This document shows positions 4,291-63,426 of a DNA stretch of 64,000 nt, in pieces. The notes under the pieces were generated by a model. That model did no database searches and was not told where the DNA came from. It saw only the letters and a program-made list of their open reading frames with translations. A program made the position numbers and the translations under genes. Position 1 is the stretch's first letter; each line of letters opens with the position of its first letter. Source of the stretch: Mobula hypostoma (Eukaryota); NCBI RefSeq assembly GCF_963921235.1, contig NC_086108.1, positions 55,430,001 to 55,494,000 on the forward strand. Direction: 5' to 3'.

Positions 4291-5031
4291 TCATGGTAGA
4301 TAAAGTAAAACTGTTGCTGTAGTTTAATTTGAGATTAATGTAGCAATTGTAATTACTTTATTACTTTCCAATGATATTTAAATAACTAATGTTAAATTAA
4401 TAATTAAAAGATAAGCCAAAATAATGATACTTTATTTCCTTTAGTTGTTGTTGAAAGCTAGAAATTCACAATTGAGGCATCTTTGAGACATCTGGTGTCT
4501 GCCAACTTTAAAATTAAAATTATATTTTCTTTCCTGAAGTACGGTATTTTTGTTCCCGCTTGAGTTGAATGGGACTGGTTGATAACATTTCCTTACTGGC
4601 TTTGAGTGAATAATGTAGTATATTCTACCAATTATTTGCCACTTTGCAGAGTTTTTAAAAAATTGTAGGTCTAATAAGGATCTGAGTGAAGATGTTCTGT
4701 AGTTTACTTTTCTCAAGTATTTTTTAAAGGAAACAAACATAATGTACAGGAACTAATTCTCATTAGTTTCTATGCATGGGGCAAGCTATCACATGATGTT
4801 TTTAGCAACAGATGCACAAAGCAAGCATAAGTGCAGTAGTTGAATCTCCAGCTTTCTCTCAAAGTTTCAGTGACTTACATTGATGAGGTGTAGCTACACA
4901 GATATACTGTTTCTTACTCGTATTCAGCCCACGTTTCCTATACAAACCTGGTCTGTAAATAATGGGAGTTCCACTTGGCAGTGAAGCTCTGCTGCATCTG
5001 TCAGACTATTTTAGTCGCTAGATTGGTCCAC

Positions 5032-5831
5032 AGCAGCACACACAGAATGCTGGAGGAACTCAGAAAGTCACTCAGCATCTGTGAAGATAAATAAACAGTT
5101 GATGCATCAGGCTGAGGCGCTTCACTAGGATTGGAAAGGGAGGGTGGTAGACACCAGAATAAAAAGGTGAGGAGAAGGGAATGAGGTCAAGCTAGAAGGT
5201 GATAGGTGAAGTCAGGTGGGTGGGACTGGTAAAGAGCTGGAGAAGACAGAATCTGATGGGAGAGCAAGGTGTACCATGGGAGAAAGAAGAGAAGGAGGGG
5301 CATCGGGAGAGGTGATGAACAGGTGAGGAAAAGAGTTAAGAGGCCATAGTGGGGAATAGGAGAGGGAAGGGAGGGGAAAGGGAAGAAAGAAAAAGTATTA
5401 CCAGAAGGAGAGATGAATGTTTATGCCATTGTGTTGGAGGGTATCCAGATGGAATATGAGGCATTCAGTTTACTATACCACTGCTCCTTACATTGGTAAG
5501 ACCTGATGTAAATTGGGGGACCGCTTTGTCAAGCACCTCTGCTCTATCCCTCAAAAGTGGAATCTCCCGGTGGCCAACCAGTTTAATTCCTGTTTCAACA
5601 TGTCAGTCCTTGGCCACTTCTTTTTCTACAATGAGGCCACACACAGGGTGGAGGAGCATCCTTCCGTAAACTACCCACGTGGCTTCACCTGTCACTTTCC
5701 AGCAGCTTCTTTCCCTTTCCCTGTCATTTCACTCTGGCACCTTTCCCCTTCCTGTCCAGTCTTAGCCAAAACATTGAATGTTTATTCATTTCCATAGATG
5801 CTGCCTGACCTGCTGAGTTCCTCCAGCACTT

Positions 5832-5863
<32 letters not shown>

Positions 5864-5902
5864 ATGCTCTGGATTTCCAACATCTGCAGAATCTCTGGTG
5901 TT
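5032..5902. mobile_element. Penelope-like element with inverted terminal arms (fold-back), decayed
   Basis: The left arm (cacacagaatgctggaggaactcag…) is the reverse complement of the right arm (…ctgagttcctccagcactttgcgtgtg). An internal GIY-YIG remnant reads YIGKT…GDRFVKHL. TAGATTGG flanks both sides (5019-5026, 5903-5910). Confidence 0.85.
5835..5863. repeat. (GT)n microsatellite
   Basis: About 14 GT units, expanded from the GTGTGT tract of the PLE arm. Confidence 0.95.
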
Positions 5903-8765: not shown

Positions 8766-8853
8766 CTGTCCTGTTCAGCATGCATTGCTAGTCATTGTCT
8801 GTAGGTGGCAGCAATTGTTTTTCTCGAAGCAGGCAGGCATTTCTTGGAAGCAG

Positions 8854-9068
8854 CAACATTCAAAATGCTGGAGGAACTCAGCAAGTCGGGCAGAATCTAT
8901 GGAGGGGAATAAACTATCAATGTTTTGGACCGAGACCTTCATCGGAACAGGATCTTGGCCTGAAATGATGACTGCTCATTTCCCACTGTAAATGCTGCCT
9001 GACTTGCTGAGTTCTAGCATTTTGTGTGTGGTGCTTATGATTTTCAGCATCTGAAGAATCTCATGTTT
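8854..9068. mobile_element. Miniature fold-back Penelope derivative (two inverted pLTR ends)
   Basis: Inverted arms meet at decayed hammerhead motifs (~8915-8975). Flanking near-direct repeat ATTTCTTGGAAGCAG / ATTTCTTCGAAGAAG (8839-8853, 9069-9083). Confidence 0.82.
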
Positions 9069-12852: not shown

Positions 12853-15800
12853 CTTTTTTTTTGTAATTTATTTTTTTATTGAATTTCATCATCAAAGAAA
12901 CATTTCCATAAGATGTATTTCAGATACTGTAATATATATTATATAATCATATTTGTCACAAATCTCCACATAATATTTTTCTGAGTATACACTTATAGAA
13001 AGGGGAGGAAAGAAAGAACAATCGAAAGAAGGAAACTATGTACAGGATAGGGTTACAACATATTCATTGACTTGTGAGAATAAAATCAAGCCTATGAGGC
13101 GTTATGTAGTTAAACCATTTTTCCCAGTATGAATAAAATTGTTCCAACATGATTAACAGATGCTGTTGTCTTCTCCATTTTGTAAATGTCCATTGTAATT
13201 TCCATCCATACATTTAAAGTCAGGCTCTCCTGTGATAACCATTTCCTGGTAAGGGTTTTTTACCAGCCACCAGCAGTACATTCATTAAATATTTACTGTA
13301 TATCTTTTCAACCATTCTTGAGGTATATACCCAAAATATATGGTCTTACTCTCTGAGGGTGTTTCACATTTAAAGATGTCTTGTAGGGCATTATGTATCC
13401 CACTCCAATAGTCTTTGATAACGGGGCATTCCCAGAAAATATGGTAATGGTTTGCATTTTGATTTCCACAATTTCTCCAGCAAACAGGGGGGTTACTATC
13501 ATAATGGGATTTCTGAGAGGGTGTAATAAAATATCTTATCAAGTTTTTCCACCCGAACTCCCTCCATTTCTGTGAACTGGTATACTTCCATTGATACCTC
13601 CATATTATTGTCCAGTCTTCCTCAGATATTATTATCCCTCCTTTCTTCTCCCATTTTGTTTTAATGTATGAAGTCGAATGTGTTTTAAGATTTGACAAAC
13701 CCTCAAACATGCTTGAAATGATTTTACTACCGTTGTCTGAATTATATGCTTTTCTAAATAGTTCTATCAGACATGTACCTGCCTTGGTTACATTTTTTAC
13801 CATCCTATTAACATACTGTCGCATCTGTAAATACCAGTAAAAGTCTTGTTTTTATAATAAGTGTTTCTCTTTCAGCATTTCAAAACTGAACAGTGTTCCT
13901 TCTTTCATTATATTGCAAATAAATGTAATTCCTTTAGCTGTCCAGTCCTTAAATCTAGCATCAAGTTTATTCGGCATAAAATCGGAGTCATATGCACACC
14001 ATTTAAGAATTGCAATGTCTCTCTCTAGTTTATATTCTTTTATAACAGTGTTCCATATTTTAAGAGTCCATTTCACCCACGGGTTGTCAATATTATTTAT
14101 GTAACTCTGTAGGTTGTTATCAGCCAAAATTGCCTGTATGGGGATGGAAAGTATCCTCTCCTCAATGTTTTTCCATTGAGGGCCATATGATAGGTTGCAC
14201 CAGCATATCACGGCTCTCAAATGTGCTGCAAAATAATAATCTCTAAGAGAAGGTAGGCCCCATCCCCCCTTTTCCTTGGCCAATTGCAAAGTTTTGAGAT
14301 GAACCCTAGGCCTTTTACCTTGCCATATATATCTTGATAGCATCTTGTTCCATTCATTGAATTGATTTTGGTTAATCTCTATTTGTAGGGTCTGAAAGAG
14401 ATATAATAGTCTGGGCAGTATATTCATTTTAATAGATTCAATCCTTGAACTGAGACCAAGAAAAGGAATTAGATTCCATCTTGTTATATCTTCCTTAAAT
14501 TTTTATATATATAGGCTGATAATTGAATTCTGATAATTTTGCCAAATCTTGTGGCATAATGATGCCCAAATATTTGATGGACTCTGTTTGCCATGCCCAA
14601 GGATATCTACTTTCAATTTCTCTTGGTGGGCTATAGTTTTATGAAAGTGGTTGGGTTGCATCTATGTTGATCTTGTATCCTGATAATTGGCCATATTGTT
14701 CAAAGGATTGCATCAGTTTAGGTAAAGAGTATGTTGGTTGCCCTAGGTAGATCAAAATGTCATCCGCGTAACAGGCCAATTTATGCTCTGTCCCTTTAAT
14801 AGTAATTCCCCTGATATCTTCATTTTGTCTGATGTATTGAGCTAATGGTTCCAGATATAATACGAAGAGTAGCGGTGACCATGCACAACCCTGTCTCGTG
14901 CCCCTTTCTAGGGTAAAACTATTAGATAGGTATCCATTGATTTTAATCCTAGCAGTAGGGTTGTCGTATAGTGCCTGTTTAGTTTTAATAATTGTGTCAT
15001 GTAGACTAAATCTATGTAAAACTCTGTAAAGAAAATTCCAATTAACCAAATCAAATGCCTTTTCAGCATCCATGCTGATCACTATTGCTTCAATTTCATT
15101 TTTTATATGATCCATAATGGACAGTGTCCTTCATATATTGTCTTGTTGTATAAAACCTATCTGATCATTATATATCAGTGTGGGTAGAAACTCCCCTCAT
15201 CATTTGGCCATGATGGAGGTAAATATCTATAATTCACATTAAGGACAGATATTGGTCTAAATGACCCGCATTCCATTTTATCCTTGCCTTCTTTCGGTAT
15301 AGCTGAGATTATCGCCTCCTTCCAGCTGGGTGGCATTTGTGCCTTTCTTAGGGCCCAGTTCAGTGTGAGGAGTAAAACAGGAATTAACTCACTTCTAAAC
15401 TCTTTATACCACTCTGCCGTATATCCATCTGATCCTGATGACTTGCTTAATTTAAGCCTACTAATTGCAGTTTTTAGTTCAATTTCAGTTATGTTAGCAG
15501 TCATCGTTCTATTTTGTTCTTTGCTTAAAGTGGGTAACTCTGGAGAATTCAGGAAGGTGTCAATTTGGGTTATGCTTCCCCCTGGAACTTTGGAATATAG
15601 AGTTTTGTAAAACATTTCAAAAGCTTCTTGAATTTCACTTAGCTTATTTTTTAATCACTTTTGTTCTCGGATCCCTAATTCTATGAATTGAATTTTCTGC
15701 TATCTTTTTTTTCAGTTTCCATGCCAGTATTTTCATAGATTTAGATCCACTTTCATAATGTCTCTGTTTCAGAAATATTAAATATTTTCTGATTTCTTGT

Positions 15801-17140: not shown

Positions 17141-17845
17141 CAATCTGCCCATCTACCTTCTCCCTCACCTCCATTCAGGGCTCAAAAACAGTCCTTGCAC
17201 ATATGAATCTGTTGGGATTGTCTGTTGTATTGGTGCCTCTGATACGGTCTTTTCTACATTGTTGAGACCTGACATGAATTGGGGGACTGCTTTCTCGCGC
17301 ACCTCCATTCCGTCTGCCAAAAGGGGAATTTCCTGGTGGACAACTATTTTAATTTCTGTTCCCCCATTCCTATTCCAATATATCAGTCCGTGGTCTCCTC
17401 TTGTGCCACAATGAGACCTTTCTCAGGGTGGAAGAGCAACAACTCATATTCTGTCTCGATGCCCTCCAACCTAATGATATGAACATGGATTTCTCCTTCT
17501 GGAATTTTTTTCCCTTGTCCTTCCCTCTGCTTCTTTTTCCCACTTTGGCCTTTTCCCTCTTCTCCTCACCTGCCTATCACCTCCACCTGTTGTTTTTCTT
17601 CTTCCCTTTCTCCTATGCTACACGCTCCTTTCCTTTTAGGTTCCTTCTTCTCCGACCCTTGCTTTTCCTACACACAGCTTCCAGCTAGTCTTTCATTCCC
17701 TCTCCCCACCTTTGTATTCTGTCATCTTCCCCCTTCCTTTCCAGTGCTGAAGAAGTGTCTCTGCTTGAAACATCGACTGTTTATTCATTTCCATAGATGC
17801 TGCCTGACCTGCCGAGTTCTTCAAGTATTTAGTGTGTGTTGCTCA
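17141..17845 (+). mobile_element. Penelope-like element 3' fragment, decayed
   Basis: GIY-YIG remnant (GDCFLAHL; LRVEEQQLIFCL…QPNDMNMDFS), a pyrimidine-rich UTR and a degenerate hammerhead at 17742-17779. Confidence 0.88.
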
Positions 17846-24600: not shown

Positions 24601-25055
24601 CCTTGGGTAGCCTTCAACCTGATGTCATGAATATCGATTTTTCTAACTTTTTTAACCATGCCCCCTTCCCTCTTCTTCCAATTACCACTCTGGCTCCCCC
24701 TCTTACTTATTCCCTTCTCCTCTCCTTAGCTGCCTATCACCTTCCCCTGGTGCCCCTTCTCCTTCCTTTTCTCCCAAGGGCCACCCTCCTCTATCAGATT
24801 CCTTTTCTTCACCACTTTCCCATTTCCACCTACAGTATTTTCTCACTTCATCTGCCCACACTCCTGCCCCCCACAACCCTGTTGGTTTCACCTATCATCT
24901 TCTAGCTTGTATGACTACCTCTCTCACCAACTTCTTACATTGGCTTCGTCCACCTTCCTTCCCAGTCTTGATGAAGGGTCTCAGTCCAAGACATCGACTA
25001 ATTATTCCTTTCCACAGATGCTGCCTAACCTGTGGAGTTCCTCCAACATGTTATA
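24600..25055 (+). mobile_element. Penelope-like 3' fragment
   Basis: LGSLQPDVMNIDFSNF (PLE C-terminus), a pyrimidine-rich UTR and a degenerate hammerhead at 24963-25000. Confidence 0.88.
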
Positions 25056-25249
25056 TATGTTACCCTTTGTATCTTTTCTGGCCACACTTGAAGGGTCAGA
25101 TTGTCAATTTAACCCTCGTCTCTTTGCTTTTCTGTCATTCCAATATTCAGAACATTTTAACCGTTCTTTTGGTCATATTTCCTTGGTGAGTATTTCCTTG
25201 GTAACTTCCTTGGTGTCCACATTTCCGAGGATCTCACCTGGTCCCTGAA

Positions 25250-25859
25250 CTCCTCCATCCTGATCAAAAAGGTGCAACAGTGCCTTTATTTCCTGCGGAG
25301 CATGAAGAAAGCTCACCTCTGTACCAGGATACTGACAGACTTTTACTGCTGTACCATTGAGAGCATACTCACCAACTGCATCTCAGTGTGTTATGACAAT
25401 TGTCCCGTATCAGACCACAAAGCACTGCAGCGTGTGGTGAAAACTGCCCAGCGGATTATCAGCGCCCAATTACCCACCATTGAGAACATCTACCATAAAC
25501 GCTGCCTGGGCAGGGCGAAAAGCATTATCAGGGATGCATCTCACCCTAACCATGGACTTTTTACTCTCCTCCCATCCGGTAAGCTCTCCGCTCCCGCACC
25601 AGCAGGCACAAGAAGAGCTTCTTCCCTGAGGCTGTGACACTGCTGAACCTCTCATCACAGGGCTAAGCAGTATTGCATCCGTATTGTACTGTCTCAGTAC
25701 TTTTATATTTGTGTGCTGTAGCACTTTTTTATTTGCAATTATTTTGTAAATAACACTATTCTTTGCATTTCTGGTCAGATACTAAATGCATTTCATTGGC
25801 TTTGTATCTGTACTCAGCATAATGACAATGAAGTTGAATCTAATCTAATCTAATCTAAT
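25250..25859 (+). mobile_element. Rex1/Babar-like LINE 3' end with (AATCT)n tail
   Basis: ORF 25272-25637 (QQCLYFLR…FYCCTIESILTNCISVCY…SHPNHGLFTLLPSG). Tail 'gaatctaatctaatctaatctaa'. Confidence 0.92.
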
Positions 25860-26912: not shown

Positions 26913-29102
26913 CAAGAACCATAGAAACCATAGAAACTACAGCACAGAAACAGGCCTTTTGGCCCTTCTTGGCTGTGCCGAACCATTTTCTGCTTAGTCC
27001 CACTGACCTGCACACAGACCACATCCCTCCATACACCTCCCATCCATGTATCTGTCCAATTTATTCTTAAATGTTAATAAAGAACCCGCATTTACCACGT
27101 CATCTGGCAGCTCATTCCATACTCCCACCACTCTCTGTGTGAAGAAGCCCCCCGCTAATGTTCCCTCTAAACTTTTCCCCCCTCATCCTAAACCCAAGTC
27201 CTCTGGTTTTTTTCTCCCCTTGCCTCAGTGGAAACAGCCTGCTTGCATTCACTCTATCTATACCCATCATAATTTTATATACCTCTATCAAATCTCCCCT
27301 CATTCTTCTACACTCCAGGGAATAAAGTCCTAACCTATTCAACCTTTCTCTGTAACTGAGTTTCTCAAGTCCCGGCAACATCCTTGTAAACCTTCTCTGC
27401 ATTCTTTCAACCTTATTTATATCCTTCCTATAATTTGATGACCAAAACTGAACACAATACTCCAGATTCAGCCTCACCAATGCCTTATACAACCTCATCA
27501 TAACATTCCAGCTCTTATACTCAATACTTTGATTAATAAAGGCCAATGTACCAAAAGCTCTCTTTACGACCCTATCTACTTGTCACGCCACTTTTAGGGA
27601 ATTTTGTATCTGTATTCCCAGATCCCTCTGTTCTACTGCACTCCTCAGTGCCTTACCATTAACCCTGAATGTTCTACTTTGGTTTGTCCTTCCAATGTGC
27701 AATACCTCACACTTGTCTGTATTAAACTCCATCTGCCATTTCTCAGCCCATTTTTCCAGCTGGTCCAAGTCCCTCTGCAGGCTCTGAAAACCTTCCTCAC
27801 TATCTACTACACCTCCAATCTTTGTATCATCAGCAAACTTGCTGATCCAATTTACCACATTATCATCCAGATCATTGATATAGATGACAAATAACAATGG
27901 ACCCAGCACTGATCCCTGTGGCACACCACTAGTCACAGGCCTCCACTCAGAGAAGCAATTCTCTACCACCACTCTTTGGCTTCTTCCATTGAGCCAATGT
28001 CTAATCCAATTTACCACCTCTCCATGTATACCTAGCGACTGAATTTTCCTAACTAACCTCCCATGCGGGACCTTGTCAAAGGCCTTACTGAAATCCATGT
28101 AGACAATATCCACTGCCTTCCCTTCATCCACTTTCCTGGTAACCTCCTCGAAAAACTCCAATAGATTGGTCAAACATGACATACCACGAACAAAGCCATG
28201 TTGATGCTCCCTAATAAGTCCCTGTCCATCCAAATGCTTGTAGATTCTGTCTCTTAGTACTCCCTCCAATAATTTACCTACTACTGACATTAAACTCACC
28301 GGCCTATAACTTCCTGGATTACTTTTCGATCCTTTTTTAAACAACGGAACAACATGAGCCACTCTCCAATCCTCCGGCACCTCACCCATAGACAATGACA
28401 TTTTAAATATTTCTGCCAGTGCCCCCGCAATTTCAACACTAGTCTCCTACAAGGTCCGAGGGAGCACCCTGTCAGGTCCCGGGGATTTATCCACTTTAAT
28501 TTTCCTCAAGACAGCAAGCACCTCCTCCTTTTCAATCTGCACAGTCTCCATGATCTCACTACTTGATTCCCTCAATTCCATAGACTTCATGCCAGTTTCT
28601 TTAGTAAATACAGACACAAAAAACCTATTTAAGATCTCCCCCATTTCCTTTGGTTCCGCACATAGCCGACCACTCTGATCTTCAAGAGGACCAATTTTAT
28701 CCCTTACAATCCTTTTGCTCTTAATATACCTGTAAAAGCTCTTTGGATTATCCTTCACTTTGACTGCCAAGGCAACCTCATGTCTTCTTTTAGCCTTCCT
28801 GATTACTTTCTTAAGTATTTTCTTGCACTTCTTATACTCCTCAAGCACCTGATTTACTCCCTGTTTCCTATACATTTCATACCACTCCCTCTTCTTCTTT
28901 ATCAGAGTTGCAATATCCCTTGAGAACCAAGGTTCCTTATTCCTATTCAATTTGCCTTTAATCCTGACAGGAACATACAAACTCTGCACTCTCAAAATTT
29001 CCCCTTTGAAGGCTTCCCACTCACATCTTTGCCAGAGAACAACCTGTCCCAATCCACGCTTTTTAGATCCTAACCTGTCCCAATCCACGCTTTTTAGATC
29101 CT
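26913..29102 (-). mobile_element. Young CR1 LINE, 5'-truncated ORF2 with complete RT domain
   Basis: ORFs 28447-29088, 27583-28401 (YMDFSKAFD, PQGSVLGP, FADD) and 27112-27546 share one frame and are separated only by single stops. Tail (TTTCTATGG)2. Confidence 0.97.
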
Positions 29103-30987: not shown

Positions 30988-32375
30988 CAACACACATCAA
31001 AGTTGCTGGTGAACGCAGCAGGCCAGGCAGCATCTATAGGAAGAGGCGCAGTCGACGTTTCAGGCCGAGACCCTTCGTCAGGACTAACTGAAGGAAGAGT
31101 GAGTAAGGGATTTGAAAGCTGGAGGGGGAGGGGGAGATCCAAAATGATAGGAGAAGACAGGAGGGGGAGGGATGGAGCCGAGAGCTGGACAGGTGATAGG
31201 CAGAAGGGGATACGAGAGGATCATGGGACAGGAGGTCCGGGAAGAAAGACGGGGGGGGGGGTGACCCAGAGGATGGGCAAGAGGTATATTCAGAGGGACA
31301 GAAGGAGAAAAAGGAGAGTGAGAGAAAGAATGTGTGCATTAAAAAGAGTAACAGATGGGGTACGAGGGGGAGGTGGGGCCTAGCGGAAGTTAGAGAAGTC
31401 AATGTTCATGCCATCAGGTTGGAGGCTACCCATACGGAATATAAGGTGTTGTTCCTCCAACCTGAGTGTGGCTTCATCTTTACAGTAGAGGAGGCCGTGG
31501 ATAGACATGTCAGAATGGGAATGGGATGTGGAATTAAAATGTGTGGCCACTGGGAGATCCTGCTTTCTCTGGCGGACAGAGCGTAGATGTTCAGCAAAGC
31601 GGTCTCCCAGTCTGCGTCGGGTATCACCAATATATAAAAGGCCACATCGGGAGCACCGGACGCAGTATATCACCCCAGTCGACTCACAGGTGAAGTGATG
31701 CCTCACCTGGAAGGACTGTTTGGGGCCCTGAATGGTGGTAAGGGAGGAAGTGTAAGGGCATGTGTAGCACTTGTTCCGCTTACACGGATAAGTGCCAGGA
31801 GGGAGATCAGTGGGGAGGGATGGGGGGGACGAATGGACAAGGGAGTTGTGTAGGGAGCGATCCCTGCGGAATGCAGAGAGAGGGGGGGAGGGAAAGATAT
31901 GCTTAGTGGTGGGATCCCGTTGGAGGTGGCGGAAGTTGCGGAGAATAATATGTTGGACCCGGAGGCTGGTGGGGTGGTAGGTGAGGACCAGGGGAACCCT
32001 ATTCCTAGTGGGGTGATGGGAGGATGGAGTGAGAGCAGATGTACGTGAAATGGGGGAGATGCGTTTAAGAGCAGAGTTGATAGTGGAGGAAGGGAAGCCC
32101 CTTTCTTTAAAAAATGAAGACATCTCCCTCGTCCTAGAATGAAAAGCCTCATCCTGAGAGCAGATGCGGCGGAGACGGAGGAATTGCGAGAAGGGGATGG
32201 CGTTTTTGCAAGAGACAGGGTGAGAAGAGGAATAGTCCAGATAGTTGTGAGAGTCAGTAGGCTTATAGTAGACATCAGTGGATAAGCTGTCTCCAGAGAC
32301 AGAGACAGAAAGATCTAGAAAGGGGAGGGAGGTGTCAGAAATGGACCAGGTAAACTCGAGGGCAGGGTGGAAGTT
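30988..32375 (-). mobile_element. Young Penelope-like element: C-terminal RT/thumb, GIY-YIG endonuclease and pLTR
   Basis: Open frame within ORF 31380-32405: NFHPALEFT…LPFLD…YYKPTDSHNYL…CKRNKCYTC…GVIYCVRCSRCGLLYIGDT…RFAEH. 5'-truncated, lacking the catalytic RT core. Confidence 0.96.
31049..31086 (-). ncRNA. Minimal type I hammerhead ribozyme motif (PLE-borne)
   Basis: Minus strand UAGUC-CUGACGA-AGG(GUCUCGG)CCU-GAAAC-GUC-GACUG. Core intact; stem I AGUC/GACU. Confidence 0.82.
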
Positions 32376-32946
32376 CTCCAACTGCCAAGCCAATGTTGTA
32401 TCCAATTGGCTAGTTTGCCTTGAATCCCATGTGATTTAATTGTCTAGACCCGGCCTACCATATAGTACCTCATCAAAGCTAACATGTCAGCTGCTTTGCA
32501 CTCATCCATCTTCTTGGTCATCTCTTCAAGCAACTCTTAATCAAATTTATGAAACACTATTACTTGTATGAGGTAGGCGGTGTTGACTATTCATATTAAT
32601 TGGTCCTTTCCTTTCTAAATACGTATAGATGCTTTCTCTCAGTATTCTCTCTAATAATTTATCTACCACTGATCTTGGGCTCACCAGTCTAAATCTGAGG
32701 GTTTACTTCTGCAGAGAGTTGTGGACACAGCTCAGCGCATCATGGAAACCAGCCTCCTATACATGGACTCTGCCGATACTTCTTGCTGCCTCAGTAAGGC
32801 AGTCAGCATAATGAAAGACCTTGCCCACCATCAGACCCATCTCCCATCAGGCAGAAGATACAAAATCTTTCAAGGCCAGCTTCTATCTTGCTGTTTTCAG
32901 CCTATTGAATGGTTCTCTGGTATATTAAGATGTACTCTTGACTTCA

Positions 32947-33786
32947 AGCAACACACATCAAAGTTGCTGGTGAACGCAGCAGGCCAGGCAGCATCTCTAG
33001 GAAGAGGTACAGTCAACGTTTCAGGCCGAGACCCTTCGTCAGGGAGAAGGAAAAGTGGGGGAGGGGAAAAACCCAGAGGATGGGCAAGGGGTACAGTGAG
33101 AGGGACAGAGGGAGAAAAAGGAGAGTGAGAGAAAGAATGTGTGTATAAAAATAAATAGCGGATGGGGTACGAGGGGGAGGTAGGGCATTAGCGGAAGTTA
33201 GAGAAGTCAATGTTCATGCCATCAGGTTGGAGGCTACCCAGATGGAATATAAGGTGTTGTTCCTCCAACCTGAGTGTGGCTTCATCTTTACAGTAGAGGA
33301 GGCTGTGGATAGACATGTCAGAATGGGAATGGGATGTGGAATTAAGATGTGTGGCCACTGGGAGATCCTGCTTTCTCTGGCAGACAGAGCGTAGGTGTTC
33401 AGCAAAACGGTCTCCCAGTCTGCGTTGGGTCTCGCCAATATATAGAAGGCCACATCGGGAGCACCGAATGCAGTATATCACCCCAGCCGACTCACAGGTG
33501 AAGGCCTCCTGTCCCATGATCCTCTCATATCCCCTTTGCCAATCACCTGTCCAGCTCTTGGCTCCATCCCTCCCCCTCCTGTCTTCTCCTATCATTTTGG
33601 ATCTCCTCCTCCCCCTCCCACTTCCAAATCTCTTACTAACTCTTCCTTCATTTAGTCCTGACGAAGGGTCTCGGCCTGAAACGTCGACTGTACCTTTTCC
33701 TAGAGACGCTGCCTGGCCTGCTGCATTCACCAGCAACTTTGATGTGTGTTGCTTGAATTTCCAGTATCTGCAGAATTCCTCTTGTT
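32947..33786. mobile_element. Young fold-back Penelope-like element with inverted arms and 14-bp TSD
   Basis: Perfect TSD TACTCTTGACTTCA (32933-32946, 33787-33800). The minus arm (32947-~33502) carries the GIY-YIG C-terminus; the plus arm (~33503-33786) carries the pLTR and a 3' extension. Confidence 0.95.
33653..33690 (+). ncRNA. Minimal type I hammerhead ribozyme motif (PLE-borne)
   Basis: UAGUC-CUGACGA-AGG(GUCUCGG)CCU-GAAAC-GUC-GACUG. Core intact and identical to the 31049-31086 motif. Confidence 0.82.
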
Positions 33787-34040
33787 TACTCTTGACTTCA
33801 GTCTAGCTTATGATCTGGCACCTTATTGTTCACCTGCACAGCATTTTCTCTGTCGCTATTACTTTATTCTGCATTCTGTTATTGTTTTATCTTGTACTAC
33901 CTCAATGCAATTCAAGCTTTTCACTGTACCTAAGTAGACATGACATTCGGAACAAATTTAAATTCCAATTAATCTTGATGCCTTTCTTATATAAGGGTAC
34001 AGCAGTCTTCAGTCACCTTGCATGCAGCTAGCTATGATAC

Positions 34041-36689: not shown

Positions 36690-38010
36690 TTTAAGCAGCA
36701 TCTATGGATGAAGGGTATTAATCTGAAAAGTCATCTGCACATTTCCTTCCATAAATGCTACCTGACCTGGTGAGTTCTTCCTACCTTTTCAGGTTTTGTG
36801 ACATCTTCAAGATCAAAGATATCCATATCACCAGCAACTTTCATACGGTTATGGTGATTCTGGTAAACTGATCACCATCTGTCCCTTTCCCCTCTTCGCC
36901 TGGCCCATGTCACACATTCTTCAAACACTCCCCAAAGTTCTTCCTTCAGTCCTGACGAACGGTTTCAGCCCGAAACGCCGACTAATCTTTTCAACTGATG
37001 CTGACTGACCTGCTGAGTTCCTCCAGCGCATTGTGAGTATCTCTTCCCCTTCTCAACTTTGTCATCAGCCCATTACTCATATGCTTCTCCACTAATTCCC
37101 TTCCCCAGCTCCTTCCCTTTATTCCATGTTCCACCTTCCTCTCCTATTAGATTGCATAATATTCAGTCCTTTGACACTTCAACTGCAGCTTCTGATGCAA
37201 TTCCCACTCTCCGCTCAACATACATGCTGTCAGTTGTAGGCCACCCATGTACAATATAAGACTACGGACACATGTGTTGGTTTGGGAATGAGTAGAAGAA
37301 ATAGAATGGCTAGCAACTGGGAGATCTGGATGGCTGGGTGAATGGAGCACAAAAACTCAATGAAGAAGACTCCCTTCCTTTGGTCTCACTGACATAGAGG
37401 AGGTCACTTTAGAAACAATGGATGCAATTAAAGAAGGCTAGAGGAAGCTATACGAAAGACTGCCTCACCTGCGTGTTTGTGAGAGATGAGGTACAGGGAT
37501 AATGTTACATTTCTTACTGTTAGAGAGGAGGGATCACTCTCTCTCCATGACTCTCTGGTCTGGAGGGATGAGCGAAAGATGTGGCTTGCAATAGGATCAC
37601 TTTGTAGCTGGTGCAAGTTGCAAAGAATGATATGCTGAATATACAGACCGTTGGGGCTGATAGGTGAGGACCAGGTGGACTCCGACATCTACACCTCCTC
37701 CCACGCTGTCACTCATAAGGTGCTGTTCCTTTTTCTTTCTCCGTCTTTGTTACATCTACACTCGATATGAGGCCTTCCACTCCAGTGCAATTTTTAGAAA
37801 ATGGGATTTCCTCTCCTTCGCCTGTTATAGATTGAGACCTCCCCCACATATTCTCTATTTCCTGCACTTCTACTTTTACTTACTAATGCTCTGACCCCAT
37901 TTCCTCACCCACCTCCCTAGAAAGAACAGGAGTACTTTATATCCCTCCATTGATGCTGCCTTAACCACTGAGTTCTCCCAGATGCCAGCTTCTGCAGTCT
38001 TTTGTGTCTC
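36690..38010. mobile_element. Cluster of decayed Penelope-like fragments in both orientations, including a short hammerhead-bearing unit (~36930-37040)
   Basis: IQHIILCNLHQLQSDP (ORF 37428-37688) and PDLPVASH…THSQT. CAGTC-CTGACGA…GAAAC-GCC-GACT at 36947-36984 has a mutated cleavage triplet. Confidence 0.75.
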
Positions 38011-50729: not shown

Positions 50730-52550
50730 GTTCTTTACTGTTTGGAATTCTTGAAGAGGAAGTGCAAAGAGGGTGTTTGTGGTTGAAGAAGAAATCAGAG
50801 AACAGTGGAGGCAAAACAGATCCTCAGAGGAGACAAACTTGGTTTGGGTGTGAGGAATGATAATATAGTTACTGCCCAGGCAGATGTAGCAGAAAGTGTT
50901 GGAGATCTACCATTTATCCTCTCTGGTTAATACGTTATTTCACTAAACAACTAAACAACCATGACATTGAACTTAGTTGGTTTAATGACAATGTTAAACA
51001 GTATTTTGTGATCAAAGATCCAAAAGAAGCAGATGAAAGGGTCCAAAAATAATATGTGGGTATGCAAGTCAAAGGTTGCCAATGGATCAAGGACAGAGAC
51101 AGAAAAGTTATCTACTTTCAGTCATTAGTGACTTTAGTAATTATTAGGTAGTATGACAAAACAGACATCTAATTGAATCATGATTGGAGAGCTTCAGCTA
51201 TGGAGTTCTGAGAAAGATAATTTGGTATTGACATGTTCAAGGATTGGGGAGAAGAGACTGTAATTTGTAATGACTAAGGGGAAAAGTTTTTTTTGAATGA
51301 GCATGTAATGACAAATTTTAAAGAGAGTCTGAGGTGAAAGAACCATTACAATATTGTTTATGTGGGTGAGAAGATAGGAAGTTGGAGTTAACAGATTAGT
51401 TGATTGCCAGGAAGCAAAAGCTGGCTCCCATGTACAACATGGGTTTGGAGGAGGACAAGAACTGAGATGGAGATGAGATTAGAGGAAAAATAGATGTGCA
51501 TTCAGAGGTAAGTGGAAAATTAAGTTAGTTAAGGTATTTGATCAGATGATGTCAACCATTAGTGACAGTGGCCCATGAGATCCACATGACCTTGTTAGAT
51601 GTGAGTAAAAAACATAGAAACATAGAAAATATGTGCAGGAGTAGGCCATTCGGCCCTTCGAGCCTGCACTGCCATTCAGTATGATCATGGCTGATCATCC
51701 AACTCAGAACCCTGTACCAGCCTTCCCTCCATATCCCCTGATCCCTTTAGCCACAAGGGCCATATCTAACTCCCTCTTAAATATAGCCAATGAACTGGCC
51801 TCAACTGTTTCCTGTGGCAGAGAATTCCACAGATTAACCACTCTCTGTGTGAAGAAGGTTTTCCTAATCTCTGTCCTAAAAGGCTTCCTCTTTATCCTCA
51901 AACTGTGACTCCTCGTTCTGGACTTCCCCAACATCGGGAACAATCTTCCTGCATCTAGCCTGTCCAATCCCTTTAGGATTTTATACGTTTCAATCATTTC
52001 CCCCCTCAATCTTCTAAATTCCAACGAGTATAAGCCTAGTTCATCCAGTCTTTCATCATATGAAAGTCCTGCCATCCCAGGAATCAATCTGGTGAACCTT
52101 CTTTGTACTCCCTCTATGGCAAGGATGTCTTTCCTCAGATTAGGGAACCAAAACTTCACACTATACTCCAGGTGTGGTCTCACCAAGGCCTTGTACAACT
52201 GCAGTAGTACCTCTGAGTACTACTGAGTAGAGATTGGACAAATCAGATGGATTTAAAAAGTTAGTTTCCCTTCGGTAATATAGTGTTTGGATATCTCTGA
52301 ACTTCAGGATAGTCTTGGAATAAAGAGCAGTTTTGGGAGAGGAGAACATTATTTCAGAGCACTTCATAGAGTTCAGCCAGATCTCTTTCCATATATTAAA
52401 CCAGTTGTGCACATGAACATTCAAGTGTGTCCTTTTGAGCTACGTAGCTGAGCATGAGGGCTGTCACAAGAGAGACATCTGACTGAGAGAATCAGTGATT
52501 TTGATTAAGATGATGGGATAAAAAATAGTGGATTGGGTGTGGTCTCTATC
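50730..52550 (-). mobile_element. Very old L2-like LINE remnant, interrupted by CR1 at 51608-52212
   Basis: Purine-rich plus strand with patchy resemblance to reverse-complement L2 RT (e.g. 51120-51410). No ORF remains. Confidence 0.45.
51608..52212 (-). mobile_element. Young CR1 3' fragment
   Basis: Uninterrupted ORF 51704-52198 (LYKALVRPHLEY…FFTQRVVNLWNSLP). Tail (AACATAGA)2; TGAGTA on both flanks. Confidence 0.95.
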
Positions 52551-55493: not shown

Positions 55494-55627
55494 GTCCTGA
55501 TGAAGGATCTCAGCCCAAAATGTCTGCTGTTTATTCCCTTCTGTAGACGCTATCTGTCTTGCTGACATCCTTCAGCATTTTGTGCGTATTGTTCAAGATT
55601 TCCAGCATCTGCAGAAACTCTTTTGTC
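55494..55627 (+). mobile_element. Solo PLE terminal unit beginning at the hammerhead motif (degenerate)
   Basis: GTC-CTGATGA-AGGATCTCAGCCC-AAAATGTC, followed by the pLTR end and tail. Confidence 0.8.
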
Positions 55628-55730
55628 TATAATTGGTTAAATTCTTCAGTTCTACAGCAAAGTGCAGGTAGAATGTATTATTAATATTTTATTATAGTTA
55701 AATTATTTCTCAAGCTTCTGCCCCCTCCCA

Positions 55731-61243: not shown

Positions 61244-61267
61244 TCCACTGCATTTACCCCATTGTGT

Positions 61268-61305
61268 GGGTCCTGATGAAGGGTCTCAGCCCGAAACGTC
61301 GACTG
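61268..61305 (+). ncRNA. Minimal type I hammerhead ribozyme motif
   Basis: GGGUC-CUGAUGA-A-GGG(UCUCAG)CCC-GAAAC-GUC-GACUG. Core intact; stem I GUC/GAC plus a G·U pair. Confidence 0.78.
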
Positions 61306-61402
61306 TGCTTCTTCCTATGGATGCTGTCTGGCCTGCTGTGTTCCACCAGCATTTTGTGTGTGTGTGTTATTGAATTTCCGGCATCTGCAGATTTCCTCGT
61401 GT
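61272..61402 (+). mobile_element. Solo PLE terminal unit starting at the hammerhead, with 10-bp flanking direct repeat
   Basis: TTGTGTGGGT at 61262-61271 and 61403-61412. The body is the hammerhead, pLTR end and tail. Confidence 0.9.
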
Positions 61403-61439
61403 TTGTGTGGGTATAAGCCTCATTTCTCATGGGATACTT

Positions 61440-63016: not shown

Positions 63017-63333
63017 CCCATCAGTGGAAATAATATCCATTAATATTAATATTGTGAAATTAATTAGAACCTTGGGAATAGGTGCAGTATAAATTAGGAT
63101 ATTGTTTTTTGTCACTTGATTTACACTGAGATATTAATTACCATCTTGTATAGTAAACATGGTTAGCAAGTTTTGGTTACTAAGAATTAGATTTTTACGT
63201 AGCCTGCAAAACCTCAGAAATATAGTCACAGACCCATTTCCCATTCTACTGGCATCTATTTTAGGTGCATTTGATACATCTCTGAAATTAGGAACAAGTA
63301 TATTGTTTGTAAGGTCCTGAAGTGGGATTCATC

Positions 63334-63426
63334 GTCCTGAATTAGGGTCTCAGCTTGAAATGTCAGCAGTTTATTCTTTTCTATAGATGCTGCCTGGTCT
63401 GCTAAATTCCTCCAGCATTTTGTGTG
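63334..63426 (+). mobile_element. Solo PLE terminal unit beginning at a degenerate hammerhead
   Basis: GTCCTGAATTAGGGTCTCAGCTTGAAATGTC…ATAGATGCTGCCTG…CTCCAGCATTTTGTGTG. Confidence 0.75.

Follow-up and report, generated by a model that had tools for sequence, protein, structure and literature searches.

Can a hammerhead motif that leaves no loop for helix III be a genuine ribozyme, and do such motifs do anything at this locus? The window analysed here, the whole stretch of 64,000 nucleotides from Mobula hypostoma contig NC_086108.1 (positions 55,430,001 to 55,494,000), holds three intact copies of such a motif, designated A, B, and C, together with a number of damaged relatives (Table 1). The initial annotation assigned them to the minimal type I hammerheads found in the pLTRs of Penelope-like elements (PLEs), and proposed that they act as dimers. 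The answer comes in parts of different strength: the motif is almost certainly a PLE minimal hammerhead; cleavage in vivo by the parent element's motif seems to us rather likely; and the copies within the window very probably do nothing.

Table 1. Motif copies and associated features; coordinates are window positions
Feature	Coordinates	Strand	Remarks
Copy A, intact minimal type I hammerhead motif	33653-33690	+	ACGU at 33681-33684
Copy B, intact motif	31049-31086	-	38/38 nt same as copy A
Copy C, intact motif, older subfamily	61268-61305	+	outer stem I 5'-arm bases are part of the target-site duplication
Copy D	33011-33046	-	core and ACGU intact; N17=U; stem I 5' arm lost
Mini-copy E, decayed motif	55494-55628	+	similarity starts at stem I
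Copy F, older, 5'-truncated	17146-17841	+	decayed motif 17743-17778; 61% to element B over 786 nt
Copy G, decayed motif	36948-36983	+	alignment to motif
Mini-copy H, decayed motif	63334-63426	+	similarity starts at stem I
Copy I, older	24604-25060	+	decayed motif 24964-24999; similarity to element B
Head-to-head pair J/L, joined inside motif	8846-9068	J -, L +	absent from the initial annotation
Head-to-head pair K/M, older subfamily	5027-5902	K -, M +	absent from the initial annotation
5'-truncated Penelope-like ORF: RT/thumb end, CX4CxxC linker, GIY-YIG endonuclease	31380-32380	-	
Element B 3' end, short form	30988-31048	-	~71 nt after predicted cut; loose ends at 30988 in runs X1, X9, X13
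Direct arm of A/D insertion: 3' UTR part, motif A, tail	33505-33786	+	end ~102 nt after predicted cut
Inverted arm of A/D insertion: GIY-YIG-coding end, 3' UTR, motif D, short 3' end	32947-33503	-	
14-bp target-site duplication, left	32933-32946	+	
14-bp target-site duplication, right	33787-33800	+	
Mini-insertion C, ~130 nt	61262-61412	+	10-bp duplications 61262-61271, 61403-61412

The motif and its copies

Copy A reads, in order: the stem I 5' arm, (U)AGUC (33653/4-33657); CUGACGA (33658-33664); an extra A (33665); stem II, GGGU-CUCG-GCCU (33666-33677); GAAA (33678-33681); C-G-U (33682-33684); C17 (33685); and the stem I 3' arm, GACU(G) (33686-33689/90). GAAAC runs directly into GUC with no loop for helix III, as originally described, and the predicted cut after GUC (33685|33686) is correctly positioned. 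Copy C differs from A and B at N7 (here U), in loop 2, at position 11.1, and in the outer stem I bases; it has a GGG/CCC stem II and a GGUC 5' arm. Helix I comprises 5 bp in A and B, one of them U-G, and 4 bp in C.

All three motifs first reported as intact pass a full descriptor (core, stem I of at least 3 bp, and stem II of at least 3 bp), which finds exactly these sites in the window and none in 100 shuffles. The core pattern has four matches, against a mean of 0.00 and a maximum of 0 in 100 dinucleotide shuffles. Copies A, B, C, and D each retain 11 of 11 core letters (CUGANGA ... GAAA ... UH), with N17 being C, C, C, and U, respectively; each lacks loop 3 and carries the palindromic ACGU. 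The palindrome is gone in 7 of 11 copies, in five of these through CG to TG/CA alone. Over the 11 aligned copies, which were selected for possessing the whole motif, 79.5% of stem I cells are paired.

A profile built from these copies identifies 16 places in the window at E<=0.0011, seven beyond the initial list; the training copies among them match by construction. The six sites initially described as decayed (17742, 24963, 33010, 36947, 55494, and 63334) all align to the motif, with E values from 4e-27 to 3e-6. For two of them the description fits only in part. The copy at 33010 is a family member, but its core and ACGU are intact, the damage being loss of the stem I 5' arm; the copy at 17742 has lost the palindrome but keeps all 11 core letters. 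In a further copy, N (36695-36790), the sequence starts close to G5, and a short inverted piece of tail adjoins it head-to-head. Also, a partial repeat of the motif start (GTCCTGAA) is present at 63312-63333, 21 nt upstream of copy H.

Two registers had been drawn for stem II: AGG/CCU, and an extra A followed by GGG/CCC. Both can indeed be drawn, but they are unequal, since 90.7% of stem II is paired over the 11 copies in the extra-A register versus 75.0% in the other. The extra A between positions 9 and 10.1 is present in all 11 copies, and helix II starts with G10.1. As a general register AGG/CCU was rejected; its outer pair fails in 5 of the 11. The young family has G-U instead of G-C at 10.1-11.1. 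C or U stands at position 11.1 with G or A after it, as would be expected had an older CCCG decayed at its CpG. This suggests that the older parent likely had G10.1-C11.1, and that G-U was fixed in the young family.

Might the motif merely resemble a hammerhead by chance, within the tail of an ordinary repeat? An Rfam search of the window yields no match at E<=1, and loop 3, which a canonical type I hammerhead has in addition to contacts between loops 1 and 2, is likewise absent. The stems are short (4-5 and 4 bp), and covariation among the 11 window copies is not significant (a single pair changed on both sides; the score was reached in 153 of 500 shuffles). Moreover, core-plus-anchor patterns arise by chance in large collections: the core-plus-tail pattern occurs at 22 loci in metagenome and one in viral contigs, and stem II is at most 2 bp in 20 of these 23. 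Neither blastn against element B nor tblastn with six PLE proteins gave a match at any of the 23. Against such a coincidence stands the joint occurrence of both stems, the full core, the extra A, and the palindrome at the location reported for PLE hammerheads (PMC4209133); a look-alike is extremely improbable. (Three of the metagenome loci, L012, L013, and L019, combine the core and ACGU with a stem II of 6-8 bp and, by simple count, a weak stem I; they are possibly unrelated minimal hammerheads.)

Conservation speaks less directly to function. Young copy B matches older copies F, I, and K at 30, 28, and 25 of 36 motif positions, and at 13, 7, and 14 of the 36 positions upstream, a contrast that is inflated because the upstream UTR is a pyrimidine tract and hard to align. 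Subfamilies have likewise kept the downstream tail (34, 29, and 28 of 45 identical in the same comparisons), so conservation of the motif need not reflect catalysis. Among 40 of the 201 contig differences listed for element B, too partial a sample to weigh, none falls inside the 36-nt motif.

The parent element and the anatomy of its insertions

Copy B lies near the end of the element that best reveals the parent. The minus-strand frame 31380-32435 specifies 351 aa, of which the first ~18 residues precede the aligned part, and motif B follows the stop of this RT-thumb/GIY-YIG frame by ~295 nt, which is the pLTR location. Within the fragment, the CX4CxxC linker occupies residues 218-226, with the GIY-YIG region after it. 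The GIY-YIG match falls below the Pfam cut-off in this frame (E 6e-4) and above it in frame 33188-33802 (E 4e-5). By tblastn, the fragment corresponds to residues 476-800 of an 806-aa RT/GIY-YIG protein (50% over 329 aa). There are 62 longer homologs, most with RVT_1; the best is ~50% identical over 93% of the query, and another, labelled Chiloscyllium punctatum, shares 66% identity across half of it, which points to a cartilaginous fish as the likely host. The RT core is absent from the window. Judged by its predicted protein, the element is an endonuclease-bearing PLE with a Neptune/Nematis-type linker. Its family is very large, because 121,029 contigs of run X1 match element B, covering 801 nt of it at 85% identity or more.

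One insertion carries both A and D, which form its outward-facing ends in a head-to-head arrangement; a 14-bp target-site duplication flanks it, and none of 2000 random window pairs reaches 14. The direct arm and the 31235-30983 part of element B share 92.5% identity. The inverted arm has an internal 3' UTR deletion of ~160 nt that ends at stem I, and the A and D arms form a 101-nt inverted repeat (96%). The start of the D deletion (~element position 31240) nearly coincides with the start of A (~31238), and a GGCC palindrome (~33504-33507) marks the junction of the two arms, a twin-priming-like geometry plus a jump from stem I. Near the endonuclease-coding end there is a perfect 12-bp inverted repeat (33222-33273), with a depth peak at the matching part of B.

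Duplications at other copies are shorter: at C, where the chance of at least 10 bp is 0.0035; at K/M, 8 bp (chance 0.036); and at J/L, 7 bp, which is not significant (chance 0.09). A search for significant target-site duplications at B, F, G, and H found none. Two 3' ends occur ~30 nt apart, at 71-72 nt after the predicted cut in B and D and at 102-104 nt in A and C; the extra 3' end of A and C is the optional PLE tail of 30-40 bp. The anatomy of a PLE is therefore present: a 5'-truncated inverted partner, a target-site duplication, and an optional tail. In the tail at 33705-33760 and its equivalents, GAUGCUG has two possible partners, ~30 and ~65 nt downstream, near the two 3' ends; this pairing, noted by eye, may be an RT start structure.

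Breakpoints at the edge of stem I

If cleavage shaped these copies, where do they begin? Inspection of 16 copies by eye shows no start at the predicted cut site; the nearest begins ~5-6 nt after it. Five of 11 copies break instead at the stem I edge. In four of these (C, E, H, and J) the upstream DNA is no more PLE-like than random window DNA (scores 0.51-0.83), and the fifth is D, by way of its internal deletion. Copy C's start is set at 61270-61272 by its duplication; copy E has 13 unexplained bases between duplication and stem I. In the sequencing runs, loose contig ends pile up at 31085 (412 contigs in X1, 49 in X13, and 9 in X19).

These breakpoints allow another reading, in which the motif derives from a hammerhead but is now mainly uncut, and either marks the 5' boundary of the template RNA, where transcription would start or RT would stop, or binds the element's protein. 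The first A of stem I stands in a YYAGTCC context that resembles an initiator, although the pyrimidine tract and the sequence of stem I would by themselves largely produce such a resemblance. A precedent for uncut RNA exists in the Anolis carolinensis element PAc, where RT used mainly uncleaved RNA and began at an internal position, in the tail (Frangieh et al. 2024, PMC11167929). The loose ends at 31085 agree poorly (0.38-0.62), and their majority letters resemble the upstream tract of the older subfamily, so that the pile-up partly reflects subfamily divergence. Moreover, the 11 copies in which breakpoints were counted had been chosen for the whole motif, and the young family (A, B, and D) has kept the 11 core letters and the palindrome. 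On balance this boundary role is doubtful.

A specific version of it would run as follows. The transcript would start, or RT would halt, at the first base of stem I; RT primed at the tail, 70-100 nt downstream, would copy uncut RNA to that base, mass-producing hammerhead-plus-tail mini-insertions of 110-140 nt and template jumps such as the D deletion; and the fold would be mainly a template 5' boundary or docking site. Such a start or stop combined with internal tail priming, as in PAc, would explain the stem I breakpoints, and we regard it as rather unlikely. If it were true, this hyper-amplified family would form a natural data set on the role of PLE hammerheads.

A splice acceptor at stem I was also considered and rejected. 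Copy A has TACTAAC, pyrimidines, and AG at 33634-33655 (compare the D. virilis intron that ends at helix I). The perfect branch motif occurs only in A; the GG before copy C's GUC is target-site DNA; and none of the 15 joints listed, from 406, combines an end at 31084 with intron-like termini. Some 20 nt past the cut site, copy A has another AG preceded by pyrimidines.

Dimer folding, activity, and published hammerheads

How would a hammerhead without loop 3 fold? In hammerhead geometry, C17 must join helix III to helix I. Because of this, and because there is no loop 3, a dimer with a stem I swap is required: two copies would pair ACGU:ACGU as helix III and exchange stem I strands, and each core would cleave the GUC of its partner. 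In a folding model the swapped dimer is a nested structure. The arrangement in which both stems I are intramolecular and only ACGU is intermolecular was rejected, as it contains 32 crossing pairs and does not place C17 between helices III and I. The initial proposal, helix III formed through ACGU:ACGU of two copies, is thus possible but insufficient, since helix I must form between the copies as well. It had also been stated that the monomer cannot fold; it can, and its predicted fold is an inactive rod in which the core GACG is paired to CGUC.

Nearest-neighbour energies, from a model that ignores core contacts and Mg2+, give copy A an active dimer of -11.1 kcal/mol. Two monomer rods together reach -22.0, a dimer held by GUCGAC reaches -15.3, and the most stable dimer reaches -30.3; for copy C, the active dimer is -16.3 versus -21.8 kcal/mol. 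The model hence favours inactive folds over the active dimer, which fits the low or protein-dependent activity of published PLE hammerheads. The six-base palindrome GUCGAC (33683-33688) overlaps the cut site, and its predicted duplex energy is -7.5 kcal/mol, versus -1.7 for ACGU:ACGU.

The arrangement of copies in the window offers little scope for such dimers. The intact same-strand copies A and C lie 27.6 kb apart on the plus strand, no intact pair being closer on one strand; the sole near same-strand neighbour of B is D, which has no 5' arm; and A and D form an inverted repeat. For these reasons the window copies are likely inert. One could still imagine that some copies act within host transcripts, B for instance cleaving the GUU of D in a half-active dimer: D's GUU site is 1,961 nt upstream of B on the same strand, B's AGUC can pair with D's GACU, D keeps ACGU, and family sequence occurs in sequencing runs guessed to be RNA. 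But the A/D inverted repeat would trap either motif in double-stranded RNA, and the predicted energies disfavour the dimer. None of the runs listed is recorded as RNA. In addition, no host gene was found among the 150 of 153 frames of at least 75 aa that were scanned with Pfam, a scan that short exons would escape. Host-transcript activity is thus very improbable. (The other Pfam matches in these frames are two RVT_1, one ALKBH8_N, and one below cut-off. Fragments of other, LINE-type retroelements lie at 27112-29100 (-), 13285-15654 (-), 25161-25637 (+), and 51704-52219 (-), with RVT_1 at 27586-28446 and 14642-15130 and ALKBH8_N at 25161-25634.) Contigs from four runs, aligned to element B, contain no site with many molecule ends and are uninformative on cleavage.

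We therefore favour, with considerable confidence, a reading in which the motif is the published minimal hammerhead at a PLE 3' end, the parent likely cuts only as a double hammerhead, probably with the help of protein, and the window copies are likely inert. In an active parent, the element RNA would be cut after GUC only by a double hammerhead of two copies. Going by the literature, a tandem transcript would supply these copies as its 5' and 3' pLTRs, with the fold chaperoned by the element's protein.

How does this double-hammerhead reading relate to known systems? The initial annotation left open whether the family had been described. The form had: loopless, palindromic, dimer-type minimal hammerheads were defined by Cervera & De la Pena in 2014 (PMC4209133), and the dimer action that the annotation invoked is the model published there. 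ACGU is the commonest version, in 29 of 56 aligned motifs, with ACGUC in 13 of 56 (our count, from extracted text in which the GAAA column was separated). The window copies hence add to a kind of motif, and to a dimer model, already in print; the assignment to the PLE pLTR class holds in location, core, stems, and palindrome. For this family itself, a literature search found no chondrichthyan description, although Repbase or the supplements of Lunse et al. or of a 2026 preprint may include it. The gain is one more host lineage, the cartilaginous fish, for a class described in 2014, and little is changed by it. The in vivo role of PLE hammerheads is an open question (PMC8557442), and a family this abundant, whose 5' breakpoints fall sharply at stem I rather than at the cut site, is material for probing it.

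The likeness to the 2014 class is detailed. Its published consensus has an extra nucleotide after A9, G10.1, and a palindromic 15.2-16.2; shared with the window are the type I form, no loop 3, a palindromic 15.1-16.1, the extra nucleotide after A9, and G10.1 (PMC4209133). So are a helix I of 4-5 bp, a pyrimidine- or U-rich 5' flank, a place in the pLTR of mostly 5'-truncated copies, and, in at least seven rows by our count, the G10.1-U11.1 of the window's young family. Helix II differs, being 3 pairs plus U-G here and 7-8 bp in the Schistosoma mansoni families, with 3-4 in some rows, and no chondrichthyan is among the 56 rows. One S. mansoni minimal hammerhead was inactive as a monomer and weakly active as a dimer or trimer (PMC4209133). 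Cleavage as a dimer is also reported for PLE hammerheads with a palindromic, very short stem III; of nine Xenopus dimers, eight showed no cleavage and one was active (bioRxiv 10.64898/2026.07.22.740005). The same preprint reports, in one chondrichthyan genome, non-LTR retrozymes derived from PLEs. These too are units with a PLE-derived type I hammerhead, but they form tandem arrays, in contrast to the dispersed or head-to-head copies here.

Among PLEs, a CX2-5CxxC linker marks Neptune and Nematis (Craig et al. 2021, PMC8557442). The window element resembles these EN+ PLEs in its C-terminal GIY-YIG with CCHH-type residues and in that linker, and also in its inverted 5'-truncated partner, 30-40 bp tail, and hammerhead near the 3' end. 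PAc, by contrast, is a Poseidon element, whose ORF starts in stem II; the window copies do not include the element's 5' end. The PAc hammerhead cleaved only when the element's protein was present, its mutants left insertion in vitro unchanged, and no reads ended at the cut site (PMC11167929). In PAc the hammerhead lies upstream of two RT starts that define the optional tail, an arrangement matched here by the two 3' ends ~30 nt apart.
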